This document shows, piece by piece, positions 15,432 through 38,153 of a stretch of 47,870 bases of DNA (position 1 is its first letter; each line of letters opens with the position of its first letter). The notes beneath the pieces are model-generated. The model saw nothing but the letters and a program-made list of their open reading frames with translations. It was not told the DNA's origin and did not search any database. The position numbers and the translations under genes are program-made. The stretch is from Conidiobolus incongruus B7586 (taxonomy: Eukaryota), in contig JNEM01009166.1 of the NCBI GenBank assembly GCA_000697335.1, forward strand, positions 1 to 47,870. Direction: 5' to 3'.

Positions 15432-16807
15432 ATGAATAAACCTGAAGATCTTCATTCTACAAGTTATCGTCCAATTCTTACTGCAAAAGTATCTAATCTA
15501 AAACCTTTGATGACTCTCTTAAGGGGAGTTCATTTCAAAGAAGTAATTATCTTACAATTATTTTGAATTATTTTACTGATCATCATATTTGTTATCAGAA
15601 AGCTAATTTTGCCATTAGTGAAGATGGCATTAGCATTATTATAGAAGAGAGTAAATGTTTTCAAGGTCATTCAGTATTAAAGAAAAATCTTTTTGAGCAG
15701 TATGATTTTTTCCCAGATAGAGATAGATTTCAGCACCTTCATCAAAATGATTTTATTAGTCCTAATCCTCCTTCCAAGCCTGCTATTTCTTTTGCCATCA
15801 ACCTAGATACATTAATTCAATGTATTCTTCTTTACAGCGCTGGACCAAGAGCTACTTACTCTAGCAATAGTGTTGCTTTTGGGATTAACGATCAAATCGC
15901 TAATCGAACCGAACCTAATCACACTTTCCCTTTGAATACCGTTGCAGGAACTCCTACTCATCTAACAGGAAACAAAACATCTGTGCAATTTTTATACGGC
16001 TCTGAATTGGATCCTAAATTAGTTGTAGTGTAGGTTAGCTCTTTCATTATATAGTTTGTTATTAATTTTATTACTCTAGAATTGAAGAAAATGGAGTTGT
16101 TTCCAAGTGTATATTGCCTACTTTTGAAATAGAATATTTTGAACCTTTAGTTATAAATCGAGAAATTGTTTCTAATAGGATAGTGATTCATGTACTTGAT
16201 ATATCAAATAATATTAACTTCATTTAATTTAATTATATTTAGTCAGATTTACTGAAAAAATCTATACTCAGCTTGGATGATTCTGCAACCTATATTACTT
16301 TATGCATCAGTCCATCAAGTCCTCATATTAGGCTACAATCCTCAGGCTCTACAGGATATTCAGAAGTAATTCAATTGATATTATTTAATATATGCTAATT
16401 TCTAATTTTATTACAGATTAATATGAGTATTGGACCTAATATCGAAGTGTTTTGTGGAGATCACTTTCCAAGGAATTTTTCGTAAGTTTGCTTATAAAAA
16501 TATGTAAATATGGTATTAAGTCTCTTCAATAGGTATAAATTTCACCAATTTTTGTATTTAATTAAAGCTTTGAGCTTATGTCAAATTACTCGTGTAGAAC
16601 TCGAATCTACAGGGTTATTATTGGTTCAAGTAATATTATATTTATACTAATTGCATTTCAATAATGTTAAATTATACATAGGCACTTATGTTTGGTGAAA
16701 CAAATAACAGCTTGGTGGAATTCTATGTAAGTTGATTTTTTTAATATTTATTTCATTAATTAATTTCGAAATTGATTTAGTTCATACCAGAAAGTGAGGT
16801 ACATTAA
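15432..16807 (+). CDS. RAD1: 9-1-1 checkpoint clamp subunit Rad1/Rec1 (S. cerevisiae Rad17 ortholog), multi-exon
   Basis: ILTAKVSNLKPLMTLLRGVHFKE-KANFAISEDGISIIIEESKCFQGH.....LFEQY matches the Rad1-family N-terminus. Later exons read KALSLCQITRVELESTGLLLVQ and VEFY-FIP; stop TAA at 16805-16807. Confidence 0.88.
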
Positions 16808-17585
16808 TTCAATCGAACAGATCTTTGTCGATACGAATTAGTTAATAAAACACCTTTTATTGATCTTAATACAGACTCAATTTGCTGAACTTGGGATTTT
16901 TGATTCAAATGATTCTGTTCATTTTGATAAGATTGTCCAATTAACTGAATTTTAGTGTCTCTTAAATCCTCTCTTAGATCAAATATTATCTCTTTTCTTC
17001 TATATTGAATTTTGACTAATTCTTGATTAAGCTCAGCCATCCTCTTGATAACATTATCATGAGCTTCAGAATTAATATTAAAATGCAGTCCCTTCTTAGT
17101 CAATTGATTCATTTTGGTTGTAGTGTAATGTTCCTGCTTTTTCTTCCTTAGATTCCTTGAGATTAATTTGCAATATATTTTAGAATACTAAAAATATATA
17201 AGATTAGTATTATGTTATATAATTCTTTAACTTTATATAATTACTAATAAGTAAATAATCCAAGATAATAAACCCGAAGTCTGTAAGAATTTGATAATGA
17301 AATCAATAGATATGAGTTTTTTAAACATTAATTGAACCAAGGCAGTAGTGAAACTCGATTTTGTACTTGACCTAATACTATCATAAATACTGACTATTTA
17401 TTTAAAATATCATATTCACATACCTTTTAAGATATATATCGAATATTTGATGCTATAATTGATGATCATTAACATTGGTTCACATATGATGAATATAGTC
17501 AAATTACCCAATAATTTGAATTTGTATGCATTTTGTTAAGATTGAGCTGGTGATACCAAAAATTTGCCATAAGTTGATTTGTCAT
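16804..17585 (-). CDS. Hypothetical ~205-aa protein with a hydrophobic segment and C-terminal coiled coil (4 exons)
   Basis: Exons 17585-17508, 17452-17424, 17371-17245 and 17187-16804 join in phase through 52-57 nt GT-AG introns into one open frame. No family recognised. Confidence 0.6.
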
Positions 17586-17914
17586 AATGATGATATTAAT
17601 TCAATAGTTGTACTTTGAACAACAACTTAGTAATCTATGAGGGTTAATATTTATATTGTTTATTGATGAAATCAACTTTTGAGTAGTTTACAATTTGAAA
17701 ATTAAAAAACTTGTTAGATAGTTCCCATTATATCTAATTATGGTAGTATTCGAGTTACATCAAATGGGATGTTATTGATACCACCAATTTCGATCATTTA
17801 TCAACCAAAATATAGTACGATTTTATTGGATATTATGATAGGAATATTGTTAATTAAGAGTCATTAAATAACAAAAATAATTTAATATTAACTCATAAAA
17901 GATTTATTTACATA

Positions 17915-20209
17915 TTAAAAAAATGACTGAAACTTGGAATACTTGTTCTGTTTTGTTAAAGCATTACTCATATGTCTTGATATGAATCCTGGCCAACAGT
18001 CAACAGGTAATTGATGATGAATGACACACTGTTCATAGAGCGACTGAACAGGTATATCGGGTATTTGGGAATCACTAGCTTCGTTATTCGTTTTAAAGTT
18101 CATCTAATAATATTTAATACTTGCTTTAAATATAAAGTAGTTTTATAATTACCTTAACACATAAAGCTAAAGAATAAAAATAGAGCTATAAAATGAATAT
18201 TATATATGCATATTCTGATTATAGTATTATTTATAATCACCTGTTTAAGCTTTTCAACTTCATCTACATGTCTTTGGATATCAAATTGTCCCTAAATAGA
18301 TGATTAGGTTAAATTGTATAATAACAGAACATATTAATATACCAAAAATTCTTCTTCAGCAGGATTTTTTTTAGCATTATCTGATGGTGTAAATAATCTT
18401 AACTGAGAAATTCTTTCAACAAGTTCTAATCTCTTATTTTGCTCATCATCGAGAGCTTTTGTCATACTTGCAATTTTTTCATCAGTAGTAACAGTTAAAG
18501 CATGAACCATCTGAAATTTATTAATTTCCATGATAACAAGCTTACTATAATTATAAATAATTTACCTGTTCTAGAGAATTGATAGTCGTATTGGCAACTT
18601 CTAGCTGTAATTGGAGCTGTCTCATAGAGAGTGCATTCTGAAATACATTGATTTAATTAATAAATTTAAATAATAATAATAATAATATTAATAATAAATG
18701 TCTTACTTTAGAAACAGATACCATACGATCAGCTTGCGTTTTATATTCTGCTAATAAGTCTATAATATCAAAGTATTATTTCGATATTTATATGATATAT
18801 GAGAATATTTGTAATTACCAGAAGGATGATAAAATAACATATCATCAGGAACTAATTCCTTATTGAAATTAGATTTAATAGGCCAGTAAGGATCACTCGA
18901 ATAATACTTAAAACTTAAGTGAGGGCCTAAAGTCGAACTCTCTCTGAGTTTTCCATTTTTATGAAAGTAGGTCACTATAATACGGTGTTTTCCCCTATTC
19001 AAAGTAACTTTTCCCTCTTTTTCTTTATTATAATGCTATCAACATATATATTAATGAAATGTTATTGAATCAAATAATAATTAAAAATTACCACTCCATC
19101 ATTTGAGATAATTGGTTTGTCCATATTTTCAACAAATAGTTCACTACCATCATTACTTTCTAAATAGAATAAATGACTGCCTGATTTTGGAATATGTAAA
19201 TATGCTGTATATTTTACAGCAAAATTTCCTAATTCTTTAATGATTACTTAGTTAAATAATATCATTATATAATATATGGTGATAATCACCTATATCGGGA
19301 ACTTCGGTATTAGGTTCCATGAAATCTGATTTCTCAGTTAACAAACCAATTGAAATATTAGGAACAACTCCAACACTCTAAATTAAATATTAATAAACCT
19401 TGGATATTTATCATTAATAAAGCTTTTACAGTTGGTATCAGTTGATCAAAATTTGGCAACTCGCTAAATTCACCTCTATAATACTCATAAACAACCCCAG
19501 GCTGGCATTCTTTTAAGTCGATGCCTTCGTGTTGAGATAATTCATTAGTATTAATAGTACTAGAGATCATGGAACTTCTATCCGACTAAATAACAATTAA
19601 CCAAATTTTTAAGAATACATAAAATAGAAATACCGTAGTATATTGATGGTGACAGAGTTCAGCGTGCCTTCGCATATTCTTTCTAGACACCTGCTGGTTA
19701 CATCTCGGATGAATACAAGGAATAAAACGTTCTAAACACTCAGTTTCCAAATGATATGTAAAATTCTTTTTTAATAAAATTTCTTCACATGTTAAACATT
19801 TCACTCTTAATTCCTGTAACTGTGACTCGACAGAGTCACTGGAGAAATATTGACTTGAGTGCGTTTTACATAGAGGACATAATAAATCCAAGTCGGGTAC
19901 CAATGAATTATTTCTCGAGTGACTGGAAAGATGGGGACTATTATTCAACGCTTGGTCTAAACTAATGGCTTTGGGTGTTTTTTGTTTGAGTTTGTTCGAT
20001 TTTTTGGTTTGCTTAGAATGAATTGAAAATGTATCTGCTTGAGGTGGTGGCGAAAGAGGTGGAGACGTAACAGATACCCAGCCAAAAACACATTCAGAGC
20101 AAAAAGTATGATTACAGCTCAATGTAATCGGATTTAAATAAGGATTAGAACATAGTGGACAAAGCAATTTAGGTTCAACGTAATCTACATAGATATACAA
20201 ATCTTCCAT
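17915..20209 (-). CDS. RING finger + TRAF-type zinc fingers + PA14 domain + coiled-coil protein (~579 aa, 11 exons); putative E3 ubiquitin ligase
   Basis: C3HC4 RING (CPLC..CNH..CSEC..CPLC); TRAF Zn finger CIHPRC...HAELC; PA14 motifs GVVYEYY, NFAVKYTAYLHIP.SG...FYLESNDGSELF, ISNDGVH...EKEGKVTL.RGKHRI.V.YF. All 10 introns are GT-AG and phase-consistent. Confidence 0.88.
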
Positions 20210-21295
20210 TATGAATGATCTGTATTAAGGAATAATAAAAACTACAAAATGCAAAATATATCAATTATTTTATTGATTAACTTTAGTAAATATTTATAAA
20301 CAAAAAGTGAATATAAAAATTGTGGTTAAATTTATTTTAATCTCATTCAATAAAAACGCGAATAAATAGTGTTGGAATAGATTACCATTTTTTATATTAA
20401 TTTATACATATTTTATTTATCCATTCTTAAGCATGACTTAATGTTTGGATTGTCTATTTGAGAATAATATAAATATCTGAGAATAATTGATTTTGGTTCA
20501 TAGATTTTAACCTTTTCTGTTTATATTCTTCGATACATATTTATATTTTTCTTTTTAATAATTCAAACCAAAATAAATAATCAATATAGCTCAGTATCAC
20601 TGTGACCTAACTGAGCAAATTGATATAATTAAACCGCTATATTGTTAGTTGAATGTTGATTCAACTAACATTGAATAAATTTAGTTCTAATTTCGATTTG
20701 ATTATATCTTTCATAATATTCATGAATCAAATATCAATGACTATCATTATTACATGTAGTAACATATTGTATATATAATATAAATATCAAATGAATAAAT
20801 TATTTTGTATATAATTTTTGCAAATCCTTAAATCATAATTTTCAAAATTATATGGATTTTGAATATGATTCAATTACCATATTTGGGAATTTTTCAAATA
20901 TTAGGCAAAAGAATACAAATTGAATTTTTCGACTTATTTCATATTTATTAAGTAGTCAATCTTGAAATAAATATAATTTGTTGTTTCGTATAGTATTATT
21001 GGTTAGTGTAATATATAAAAATAGACATTATTTTCAAATCATAGAAAAAAATACTTGATATTTTTCTGAATATGAAAGTAATCAAAATTTGTAATTATTC
21101 GAAAATAATATATTAATCAAGTGTGTGAGAATTTTGATGATTGATATTTGATCTCATATTTCCTTCACATGATTAATTAATGAAAAAATCCCATAACAAA
21201 CTATAAAGTGTGATGTTATAAAGCTGTTTGAATTTAATTGACTGCTTTTAATTTATAATTATATAATACAAAGCTTTAGTTAATTATAATCATCG

Positions 21296-22424
21296 ATGCT
21301 AAAACAATTTATCGCACCAAAATATAGTGGTTATTCTGTAAGAAATCTAATCAATTTGTATTTAATACATAATTAATCATATTTTTAGTTGCAATTTAGT
21401 CCTTTTTATGAACATAAATTAGCAGTTGTAGGGGCTGCCAACTATGGTTTAATAGGTAATGGTCAGCTATTAATCTTAGAAGATACTCCTGGTGATATAG
21501 TAGTTCAAAATGGGTAATTATTAACTTTTCAATTACCTGTATTTGTTTAATTAACATTACTAAAAACTTAGTTTTGAAACACAGGATGGCTTATTTGATG
21601 TGAGTTGGAGTGAAATCAATGAACATCAGCTTGTCACAGCTTGTGGTGACGGCTCTATTAAACTTTGGGATATTAATTTAAAGGTTTATTACTTTTTAAT
21701 ATTTATTTAAAAATATAAAAAATGACTAATTTATTTTTAGAATCATCCAATTCGCAATTGGCATGAGCATAAAAAAGAAGTTATGGGAGTAAACTGGAAT
21801 CCAGTTAAAAAAGATCAATTTGTCTCAGCTTCTTGGGATCAATCAATTAAAGTTTGGAATCCAGAAATTGGTAACTCGCTTGTAACCTTTGTGGGCCATC
21901 AACAATGTGTATACTCTGCAATGTGGTCACCCCATAATCCAGATTTGTTAGCATCTTGTTCAGGGGATCAACAATTAAAGATTTGGGATACTAAATCACC
22001 TAAGGGTGCAGTCCAATCAATTCATGCCCATTTAAATGAGATACTTTCATTAGACTGGAACAAATATGAACCTTCTCAAGTTGTTACCGCCTCAGTTGAT
22101 CATACCGTTAAAGCGTGGGATTTAAGAGACTTAAGAAGAGAACTTTGCTCTTTCAAATGCCATGATTATGCTATTAGAAGAGTTAAATGCTCGCCTCATG
22201 CCAATGGAGTTATTGGAACTGCTTCTTATGATATGACCGCTAGACTTTGGGATCTCAACCGACTAAATGGAGGCCATAATCCCGCTTTATATGTTCATGA
22301 CGTCCATTCAGAATTCGTACTCGGATTGGATTTCAATTTATACGTACCTGGGCAGATTGCTACATGTAGTTGGGATGAAAGAGTGAATATTTTCATGGTT
22401 CCTGAATTAGCTAAACAAGGATAA
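21296..22424 (+). CDS. PEX7: Peroxisomal PTS2 receptor Pex7 (WD40), multi-exon
   Basis: [84 protein letters not shown]. Confidence 0.95.
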
Positions 22425-31326: not shown

Positions 31327-31971
31327 CACTTGTTATTATACATTTATTTTTTAATGATCAATAAATTTTTATATTAATATTCAATATTATGTAAATATCC
31401 ATATCAATGAAACTATCTAATTTATTTATTGTTACAATATAACGATATTTTTCTATACTATTTTCAATTTGATTTAATTTTATATTGTAGACTAAATAAT
31501 GTGACAATTTTTCATTTTTAGATAGTAGACATTATACTTATATGACTAAAATAATTTAGCTTCTTGGTTAAATAATTGGGAAAATTTTTAAATTTAATCA
31601 ATACAATCCAAATGATTCATATGTGAAGTTATACATTTTGTTTGTTTAAATCCTAACAGTTCAGTACATATTTGAGAGAGTAGCTAAGCATTATTATATG
31701 GTGTCTGTTTACTTATTCAACAATCTGTCCTAATACTAAATATATACCAAATTCATTCATTACAGTGATTTAATATAAGAATCATAAAATACTCTAACAT
31801 ATATAAGGATAATTGGAGTAGTGATAAAAATAACTAAACTTAAACGTATAACTTAATAGGTTAAACCTCAAACCGGTTCCATTTAATATTGGTTCAGAAC
31901 AAATATATAGTTATCAGTTTCCTCAGTTTTGATCCAACTACGTTTTTAATTTGATTCACTTACATATCATC

Positions 31972-32523
31972 ATGAAATTATCTACTTTCGCTATTGCCTT
32001 AACTTCCATCACCGCTGCATACGCCCAATACGAAGATGTCTGTGGAAAAAATGAAAGTTATTGTTTGTCTACCTGTCATAAACATGGAGGTGTTTTGGTA
32101 AATATTTGTGATCCTAAAAATATGAACTATGAATGTCAATGTGAAGATAAAACACGTCCTATTGACACTTGTAAGGACATTTAATTGATAATGTTCTATT
32201 ATATTCATTAATAATTGTTTATTTTAGATGGTAATTTCCCTGTTGAAATTGAGAGATGTATGATCAATAATGCCAGCTGCCGTGATAAATGTAACGATGA
32301 TCCTAGTTGCCTTGCCAAATGTGACAGTGAATTCAAATGCATTTTCAAGGATCCCCACGATGGTAACGTTACCAAGCCCACTACCAACACCATCAAAGCC
32401 CCTGGAACTGCTCCTGCCACCGACGCTCCCAACCTCAATGGTAATGCTTTCTTCTCCAGCGCCCCCGTTTATACTTTAATTGGTACTTCCATCTTTGCTT
32501 TCTCTATTTCTTTAATTGATTAA
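31972..32523 (+). CDS. Small secreted 12-Cys protein (164 aa) with Thr/Pro/Ala stalk and GPI-type hydrophobic C-terminus; intron 32171-32227
   Basis: Signal peptide MKLSTFAIALTSITAAYA. The phase-1 intron joins two ORF-track fragments (..RPIDT-Y-GNFP..). C-terminus NG/NA-FFSSAPVYTLIGTSIFAFSISLID. Confidence 0.85.
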
Positions 32524-35777: not shown

Positions 35778-38153
35778 ATGAGTGTCCAAGAAATGTTCAA
35801 CTCCCACCAAATGAATAGTTCTTCCGAAGAAGAGTTAGTTATTAAACCAAAACATACTACAAAAACTACTGATCAAACTAGCAATGCTCAGCTCGACGCA
35901 TTTCACAATATTTCTTCCATAGCTAGTACTCTTCCTAGAACAAATTCCTTCAAATACGAGAACCAAGTAGTCGAATTTCAAAAGCACACTGCTTTTCAAG
36001 AAACTATTAACTCAGGTAATTACTACACACTTTAATATTATAATAGAAAATATTTTACTTTCTACAAGAAATTATAAATTTTACAATTTCCAAAAATATT
36101 GATCGTTAATTGATGATAATGAAGGATCTTATATAATTAGCTATTCAATAAAAAATCCTAAGATTTTTAATATTATTATCATTATTCAAGTTGCTAATCA
36201 AGCTAATGTTTAGAAATTTCCAGAGTACTGGTTATTTACACTGGAGGTACCATCGGTATGAAGCCAAACGCTGATAATCATTATGAGCCCGTTTCAAATT
36301 ATTTAACTGAAAGTCTTGCTTCGATGGTTCGTTTTCATGATCCATATAATCCTCAATACTCTCCCAAAACTCTAGATTCTCTATCTAGAGTTGATTCTTC
36401 CAATCATTTATCCAGTTTATCTGAAAATATTCAGCACAACCCTCAGCTTCAGAATAGTACTCAACAAATATTATTGAATCAAACGAATTGGTTGATTACT
36501 CCACCTTCGCTATATGGTAAGAGAATTAAATATTCTATAAAGGAGTATGATCCTCTATTAGATTCTTGTAATATGGGTATGGATGACTGGGTTAAAATAG
36601 CAACTGATATTCAAGATAATTATAAATTGTACGATGCTTTTCTTGTGTTACATGGTACCGATACCATGGCGTACACGGCAAGTGCCTTGAGTTTTATGCT
36701 AGAGAATTTGGGTAAAACAGTTATTATCACAGGTTCTCAAGTTCCTCTATCCGAGGTGAGGAATGACGCAGTTGAAAACTTACTCGGTGCTTTAACCATT
36801 GCTGGTCACTTTGTTATTCCTGAAGTGTGTCTCTACTTTAATAATCGTCTCTATAGAGGTAATCGTTGTTCTAAAATTTCTGCTATGGACTTCCATGCTT
36901 TTGACTCTCCCAACTGCCGTCCTTTAGCAGAGACTGGTGTAAATATCGAAGTGAATTGGGGTGAAGTATTTTTCCCTAGAGATATCAGCTCTTTTACAGT
37001 CTCTAAGAAGATGAATAATAATGTAGCATCTTTAAGATTATTCCCAGGTATTACTGACGCTACTGTCAGAGCTTTTCTATCAACGAATGTGGAAGGTGTG
37101 GTATTAGAAACTTATGGTGCGGGTAACACTCCAGATCGTCCTGAGTTGATGAAAGCTTTAGCTGAAGCCAGTAATCGTGGTGTTGTAATCGTTAATTGTA
37201 CCCAGTGTAGAAAGGGATCTGTAAGCAGTTTATATGCAACTGCAAAGGGTTTGATCGAAGCGAATGTAGTACCTGGTGGTGATATGACTCCAGAATGTGC
37301 CTTAACTAAGTTAAGCTATCTTTTGGCTAAAGGATACACCCCTGAAAAGGTGCGTGAATTGATGCAAACGAATCTTCGTGGTGAGTTAACAGAACCCAAG
37401 AAAACTGTACCTGTTTTTCCAGACAAACCTCTCGATTCTACCGAATCCAGCTCTTGTCTCCATTATCTATTCCATTGTCTTCCCCAACCTTTATCCCTTT
37501 TCAAGATTGATGATTTATCCAAAATGCAAATCAACCAAATGTCAAGATCCCTTCTGCCTCTCATTTTATGTTCTGCGGCTAGTGCAGGAGATGTTGACAC
37601 AATCAAGCACTTAAATTTCGATCTGGGATCTCAGCTTCAATTCAATATTACTGATTATTCAGGAAACACACCATTGCACGTAGCTTGTGCGAATGGCGAA
37701 ATTGAAGTTGTCAAATACTTACTCCTCAATGGAGCTAGTGTTCACCTCCAAAACCAAAGGGGGCATACCCCCATCTTCGAGTCTATTATGGCAGGCCATC
37801 TGGATATTGTTCAATTACTAAGACAAGCAGGAGGTCATCTAAATTTATCAGAGATAAAATTTGCCACCCTACAATTTTTCAATTCTGCCAACACAGGCCA
37901 ACTCCAACAATTACAACTCTTCCTTGAAGGTGGTATCCCAGTAAACAGTCAAGGTGTATTTGGATCTACTGCACTTCACTTTGCAGTCGAAGGTCAACAA
38001 CTTCGAGTGATCAGTTTCCTTCTAACTGAACCTGACATTGATAGGAATTTAAAGAATAATTTTGATTTGACGCCTTTAGATTTAGCTAAAAGAAAATTAG
38101 AATTGGATCCAAATAATTATAACCTTCAAAAAATTGTTAAAATTTTACTATAA
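35778..38153 (+). CDS. Type I L-asparaginase with C-terminal ankyrin repeats (60-kDa lysophospholipase/ASPG type); intron 36016-36213
   Basis: VLVIYTGGTIGM and HGTDTMAYTASALSF catalytic motifs; TGSQVPL, DMTPECALTKLSYLL; ankyrin repeats GNTPLHVAC, GHTPIFE, GSTALHFA. Confidence 0.94.

Follow-up and report, generated by a model that had tools for sequence, protein, structure and literature searches.

A predicted TRAF-like RING protein with a PA14 domain in Conidiobolus incongruus, a candidate single-chain, carbohydrate-reading ubiquitin ligase

Locus and gene model

The window, that is, the whole 47,870-nt stretch of DNA analysed here (contig JNEM01009166.1 of Conidiobolus incongruus B7586), encompasses, on the minus strand at 17915-20209, a gene for which an 11-exon splicing pattern is predicted. 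Joining all 11 exon coordinates yields a single 1,740-nt frame (579 aa and a stop codon), with the following features:

Exon 1, 19634..20209, minus strand: aa 1-192, C3HC4 RING and two TRAF-type zinc fingers (Pfam, PDB, Atlas)
Exon 2, 19430..19585, minus strand: aa 193-244, linker and first PA14 strand, GVVYEYYRGEF, which aligns with the bacterial G-x-x-Y-x-Y-Y-E-G start
Exon 3, 19290..19377, minus strand: aa 245-273, PA14 strand and a 13-aa loop insertion; the next intron may use another 3' splice site
Exon 4, 19092..19228, minus strand: aa 274-319, PA14 core with S298-N299-D300-G301 (canonical SDDG) and N316-D-G (Pfam, PDB 6QDI, motif survey)
Exon 5, 18819..19035, minus strand: aa 320-391, C-terminal half of PA14 with H320 and Y342-F343-H344 (canonical YF[E/Q/D/N]; register against 6QDI and 6QE7)
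Exon 6, 18707..18759, minus strand: aa 392-409, linker and start of the coiled coil
Exon 7, 18566..18637, minus strand: aa 410-433, coiled coil
Exon 8, 18343..18510, minus strand: aa 434-489, coiled coil up to about aa 473
Exon 9, 18241..18291, minus strand: aa 490-506, helical tail; splice model less certain
Exon 10, 18153..18185, minus strand: aa 507-517, helical tail; 33 nt, 24% GC, the least certain exon
Exon 11, 17915..18103, minus strand: aa 518-579 and stop, a small, probably three-helix module outside known families, with no Pfam match at E<=1

All 10 introns have GT..AG borders, are 48-69 nt long and contain 10-20% GC, compared to 24-40% in the exons and 28% in the window overall. An exhaustive splice-path search was run across 96 candidate introns, and the six longest paths were compared. 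Introns 1, 2, 7 and 8, together with the donors of introns 3 and 5, are common to all six paths, introns 4-6 undergo small shifts only, and every longest path ends at the stop at 17915. Alternatives exist for the acceptor of intron 3 and for introns 9-10, so that the gene model is weakest at exons 9-10. Independent support for the model comes from exons 2-5 which, once spliced, are colinear with bacterial PA14 domains from the first strand through the closing motif. The preliminary description of this DNA had proposed 11 exons forming one frame of about 579 aa, and a single gene combining RING, TRAF-type zinc fingers, PA14 and coiled coil. Both proposals are borne out at the level of prediction; in Pfam scans of eight single-exon pieces (exons 6, 9 and 10 being too short), zf-C3HC4 and PA14 score above the cut-off and zf-TRAF at the cut-off.

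The neighbouring genes recognised by Pfam encode Rad1, importin beta, WD40 proteins, an F-box WD40 protein, PIG-S and TIP41; by eye, further ORFs presumably encode Sec13, Rpb12, Spb1, cysteinyl-tRNA synthetase and asparaginase, and the F-box protein is one that we take to be Met30-like. This protein and the short, AT-rich introns would fit a fungus of an early-diverging lineage. These neighbours are eukaryotic housekeeping genes that give no hint of the role of the RING-PA14 gene, and no paralogue of the latter is present in the window. The start codon is preceded by about 1.3 kb of very AT-rich sequence (20210-21500, 13-33% GC per 60 nt), which is long for a gene-dense window. Just downstream, on the same strand, lies a 127-aa ORF (16804-17187, minus) with a helical or coiled-coil-like sequence and a weak DUF2096_N match below the cut-off; it probably represents the final exon of another spliced gene, with possible upstream exons within 17200-17860. 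This ORF is convergent with the spliced gene for Rad1, of the 9-1-1 clamp (15497-16700, plus; Pfam 3e-11). Elsewhere in the window, a two-exon gene (31933-32523, plus) encodes a small Cys-rich protein with a DUF7707 match (9.6e-6); it seems to begin with a signal peptide and has a Thr/Pro stalk, and its hydrophobic C-terminal end looks GPI-like by eye. A long ORF (36207-38153, plus) appears, by eye, to encode an L-asparaginase with C-terminal ankyrin repeats.

RING, zinc fingers and coiled coil

Exon 1 matches zf-C3HC4 above the Pfam cut-off (E 1.8e-7) and zf-TRAF at the cut-off (E 7.3e-6, 27.0 bits). All eight zinc ligands of the RING are present in C3HC4 order (C17, C20, C32, H34, C37, C40, C111, C114), and an S/P/K-rich loop of roughly 60 aa precedes the last pair. 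At the presumed E2-contact positions, L19, W44, P112 and K115 agree with the RING consensus. The two TRAF-type zinc fingers are C138-C141-H153-C158 and C165-C170-H182-C186. The best PDB match of exon 1 is TRAF5 (7L3L, E 7.2e-6), which aligns in two blocks, residues 5-45 and 110-184, flanking the loop; the last RING pair was placed at C111/C114 on this basis, and the RING loop is about 60 residues longer than that of TRAF5. [quoted passage not shown] The two proteins share such a loop in the same place, RING loop 2, but TRIM52 has the TRIM architecture and an acidic loop, unlike the S/P/K-rich loop of the Conidiobolus protein. The Atlas neighbours of exon 1 are RING/TRAF clusters of a generic kind, none listing PA14; the cluster at rank 2 is led by Ascomycota. 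The single-sequence structure model of this exon (mean pLDDT 41.7) was too poor for a fold search.

A heptad repeat spans residues 404-473 across exon junctions, with a score, by a simple in-house measure, that was reached by 1 of 200 shuffled sequences. The coiled coil follows PA14 rather than the zinc fingers directly, and about 105 aa are left past it. In this C-terminal region, the single-sequence model of exon 11 consists of three helices at low confidence (mean pLDDT 52), again too poor for a fold search. In TRAFs, the TRAF-C domain lies after the coiled coil (PMC10181826), and no MATH (TRAF-C) match at E<=1 was obtained with Pfam in exons 7, 8 and 11. Being N-terminal to the coiled coil, PA14 is not in the MATH position, which weakens the earlier suggestion that PA14 takes the place of MATH. 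On sequence evidence, the protein is TRAF-like but, with no MATH found, is not a TRAF. It shares with TRAF E3s, such as TRAF5 and TrafE, the N-terminal RING, the TRAF-type zinc fingers and the coiled coil, and differs from them in the lack of MATH/TRAF-C, the presence of two fingers only, the PA14 domain between the fingers and the coiled coil, the extended RING loop 2 and the small helical tail. In a hydropathy scan, no signal peptide or membrane helix was evident, and the protein has no strongly hydrophobic 19-mer, the best mean hydropathy (1.24) being found inside PA14. Thus, the domain order of the preliminary description (RING, zinc fingers, PA14, coiled coil, helical C-terminus), which agrees with Pfam, the heptad score and the weak helix model, is retained, as is the absence of an evident signal peptide.

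The PA14 domain and its relatives

The PA14 domain occupies about residues 219-390 and is complete, running in order over exons 2-5 without a frame break. Exon 4 alone matches PA14 above the Pfam cut-off (E 3.2e-6) and the clostridial PA14 structure 6QDI in the PDB (E 1.2e-5). Against a profile of 352 related domains, which was chosen by similarity and hence is not independent, the domain scores 122 bits. The Atlas feature neighbours of exon 5 are bacterial clusters, some with PA14 in 11-18% of the members, recognition falling just below the threshold. The closest relatives are PA14 modules of bacterial glycosidases, with 36-39% identity, among them the C-terminal module of a GH29 fucosidase (L070; 36% over 167 aa), and the shared features include the GxxYxYY start and the SxDGS, NDGxH and YF motifs. 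Full-length colinear similarity, at best 36-39% identity, extends to modules of bacterial glycosidases and sulfatases (PDB 9S8A and 9S8X) and to the clostridial RsgI sensors (6QDI, 6QE7). These bacterial modules, however, are mostly exported or surface-located and carry DD and E/Q/D/N ligands, whereas the Conidiobolus domain, with N299 and H344 in these places, forms part of a RING protein.

The preliminary description correctly recognised PA14, as Pfam attests, and cited GH3 glucosidases and Flo/Epa adhesins as its main settings in fungi; the closest matches of this domain are modules appended to bacterial glycosidases and sulfatases. No Flo/Epa adhesin or fungal GH3 chain appears among the PDB sequence matches of the PA14 exons, one of the profiles used being weighted to bacteria, and the Pfam match to GLEYA reaches only E 0.066. 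The yeast Flo/Epa (GLEYA) domains and the PA14 inserts of fungal GH3 enzymes have the superfamily in common with this domain; in contrast to them, the Conidiobolus protein has no evident secretion signal or wall anchor. Members of the same PA14 subtype are also present, alongside Sushi, SRCR or trefoil domains, in proteins of eukaryotic appearance. Five such proteins (P0037, P0089, P0103, P0097 and P0116) combine tandem PA14 domains with Sushi, SRCR/collagen or trefoil domains and resemble eukaryotic surface lectins. A recent transfer of PA14 from bacteria was considered and was weighed against the identity of at most 39%, the three introns within the domain and the presence of the subtype in eukaryotic-looking proteins.

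Two short stretches on the minus strand, GSHLFYLESND in exon 4 (19092-19226) and GPHLSFKYYSSD in exon 5 (18820-18930), are similar to each other, which may be due to chance or to an internal echo of the sandwich. They repeatedly misled the aligner. Several misaligned fragment alignments were left out.

The calcium/sugar pocket

In PA14 lectins, the sugar-binding Ca2+ is held by a cis Asp-Asp pair and by an Asn/Gln two residues past a conserved Tyr, according to PMC6852018 and bioRxiv 2020.11.18.389155. In the former, the Tyr is said to stabilise the cis peptide, Asn may replace Asp at the second motif position (DcisN), and a clostridial PA14 that has lost both Asp residues (to Asn-Gly) binds neither calcium nor pectin. 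In the Conidiobolus domain, two of the three side-chain Ca2+ ligands are changed. Residues 298-301 read SNDG, that is, the first Asp of SDDG has become N299 and D300 is kept; at the CBL2 position, typically E/Q/N, there is H344, in a register taken from the alignments to 6QDI and 6QE7. The preliminary description had noticed SNDG but missed this second change. The remainder of the pocket region, namely, D300, N316-D-G-x-H320 and Y342, is retained, and Y342 aligns with Y129 of 6QDI, so that the cis-peptide Tyr is preserved.

The rarity of these changes was gauged in 565 domain matches from the best 150 of 8,482 proteins, a set that includes repeats within proteins and is, therefore, non-independent. 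Among the matches listed, the Asp-pair position reads DD in 496 of 565 and ND in 22, indicating that Asn at the first Asp is tolerated singly; the CBL2 position is E/Q/D/N in 539 of the 558 readable matches and His in 2; and none of the 565 combines N with His. A set of 28 rows from sampled genomes (two of the loci overlap) includes 26 with DD and none with ND, and in 27 the second site is E/Q/N/D. With both N299 and H344, canonical Ca2+-dependent sugar binding is doubtful. The DcisD-N type is defined by an Asp-cis-Asp pair and an Asn/Gln/Glu ligand two residues after Tyr; here, the corresponding positions are N299-D300 and Y342-F-H344. Thus, by its residues, this is a PA14 domain yet not a canonical DcisD-N lectin, and the pocket may be dead or may be retuned for the cytosol; N299 and H344 may represent either conserved features or drift. 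Of the earlier proposal of a lectin-type E3, the predicted RING-PA14 chain is supported, whereas a canonical Ca2+ sugar site is doubtful.

Searches for related proteins and descriptions

No relative combining RING and PA14 was detected in word-indexed protein, metagenome, genome, viral and Atlas searches or among 1.84 billion representatives, the remote queries being single exons or a two-exon profile. Exons 1, 4 and 5 yielded no homologue among longer proteins in the word-indexed search; that collection contains none of three intronless neighbour proteins, so that the proteins of the source genome are probably outside it. A metagenome scan with exon 1 returned seven loci, all restricted to the first half of the RING and none with PA14, exon 4 had no confirmed match in sampled genomes and viruses, and the single match of exon 11 to phages was at chance level. 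The largest search, of the 1.84 billion representatives, employed a profile of exons 4-5 joined by a 40-aa bacterial bridge and retrieved 8,482 proteins at E<=0.001. The best 150 of these are all multi-PA14 proteins, and none of the 150 contains a RING or TRAF pattern. In simulations with 60 trials per identity level, the best 150 included an orthologue 48 times at 60% identity, 13 times at 50% and never at 45%. Because tandem-PA14 proteins crowd the list, and given this simulation, only close orthologues are excluded, the reach ending at about 55% identity; the architecture may or may not be widespread among more divergent proteins.

The literature searched, which took in few subscription journals, contained no description of a RING-PA14 or TRAF-PA14 architecture and no paper on Conidiobolus and PA14; domain tables in the supplements of genome papers may yet contain it. 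In passages of PMC4444583, PA14 and ubiquitin ligase are mentioned unconnected, and passages of PMC8195603 make no mention of PA14. The architecture RING-TRAF finger-PA14-coiled coil, as predicted, is real and apparently undescribed, in line with the preliminary description, which knew of no characterised example.

Possible function

The reading that we favour, tentatively and at less than an even chance, is that of a cytosolic, single-chain, TRAF-like E3 in which target choice would fall to PA14, whose remodelled pocket would most likely recognise a carbohydrate-bearing partner. By analogy with TRAF biology, a charged E2 would dock on the RING and the first zinc finger, and oligomerisation through the coiled coil would let several RINGs and PA14 domains act jointly. 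The pocket would take its ligand without canonical high-occupancy Ca2+, being metal-free, binding another metal on D300 and H344, or functioning solely during local rises in Ca2+; whatever protein or surface it binds would then be ubiquitinated and removed by the proteasome or by autophagy. A carbohydrate seems the likeliest single ligand class for PA14, while still falling short of probable, and is favoured because the closest PA14 relatives sit on carbohydrate-active enzymes and because pocket residues are retained. Cytosolic sugar-reading E3s do exist, namely, Fbs1-3 (PMC6389600). The more specific idea that a glycosidase-type PA14 was captured and its calcium pocket (N299, D300, H344) retuned to read carbohydrates at cytosolic metal levels, making a single-chain lectin ubiquitin ligase, is unlikely as it stands.

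Another reading, second in likelihood and itself unlikely, is that PA14 has lost sugar binding within a TRAF-like E3 or scaffold and, as a protein- or peptide-binding beta-sandwich, does the job of MATH. Cytosolic Ca2+ at rest lies far below what a lectin-type site requires, which speaks for such an adaptor, as do the two calcium-ligand changes, both rare and never paired among the matches listed, and the abolition of binding upon motif loss in the clostridial module (PMC6852018). Conversely, the rest of the pocket is kept, and the PA14 roles described in passages of PMC6852018, bioRxiv 2020.11.18.389155 and PMC4444583 are carbohydrate-related. It appears improbable that the protein is a canonical Ca2+-dependent lectin E3 responding to glycans exposed on endobacteria or damaged vacuoles, with Ca2+ leakage at the lesion as the trigger. 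Asn can stand for Asp, both in DcisN modules (PMC6852018) and among the ND matches, and there are precedents at damaged compartments: TrafE, a TRAF-like E3 of Dictyostelium, builds K63 chains on damaged endolysosomes (PMC10181826), and Fbs3 reads glycans on damaged lysosomes (PMC6389600). However, the CBL2 ligand is replaced by His, seen at this position in 2 of the 558 readable matches, and the locus contains no pointer to vacuoles or bacteria. The damaged-vacuole or endobacterium role put forward in the preliminary description thus finds no direct support, the neighbours being housekeeping genes.

We would likewise give little credence to a lineage-restricted fusion in which PA14 is a slowly drifting structural passenger on an ordinary fungal RING/TRAF-finger E3. 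The failure to find a RING-PA14 relative within the reach of about 55% identity, the abundance of RING and zf-TRAF clusters in the Atlas, one of them led by Ascomycota, and the pocket changes along with two loop insertions in PA14 are compatible with such a passenger. Nevertheless, PA14 is complete, shares 36-39% identity with bacterial modules and is interrupted by three introns, suggesting that selection has maintained it in the gene for a long time, and distant orthologues would, by the simulation, lie beyond the reach of the searches. Finally, the alternative splice paths of exons 9-10, in a model predicted from sequence, leave a very small chance that the gene model fuses two genes or covers a pseudogene. 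The RING exon is separated from the first PA14 exon by one 48-nt, 17%-GC GT..AG intron, which leaves no room for a terminator and a promoter, and the RING and PA14 exons are joined in all six of the longest splice paths.

Implications

The sugar-reading ubiquitin ligases covered by the review PMC6389600 are F-box subunits of SCF complexes from mammals and plants. Fbs1-3 (FBXO2, 6 and 27) share with the favoured reading of the Conidiobolus protein, a TRAF-like E3 with a carbohydrate-selecting PA14, the concept of glycan recognition on behalf of a RING ligase by a beta-sandwich in the cytosol. They differ in belonging to multi-subunit SCF ligases and in using another sugar-binding fold (PMC6389600), whereas here the RING and the putative sensor are in one chain. 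With no Pfam match to an F-box or an Fbs-type sugar-binding domain in the eight exon pieces, Fbs is an analogy only.

If PA14 binds protein, this would still be an undescribed TRAF-like architecture, albeit of narrower interest. A lectin E3 with a retuned pocket, if that reading is right, would give an early-diverging fungus a direct cytosolic sensor of glycans, such as those from intracellular bacteria, polysaccharide bodies, retro-translocated glycoproteins or damaged vacuoles. The altered pocket also offers a small, soluble test case of whether PA14 domains remain functional when the Asp-Asp calcium clamp is missing. A RING fused to PA14 would be an independent, one-chain solution and a candidate for the way in which a fungus marks glycans in its cytosol.
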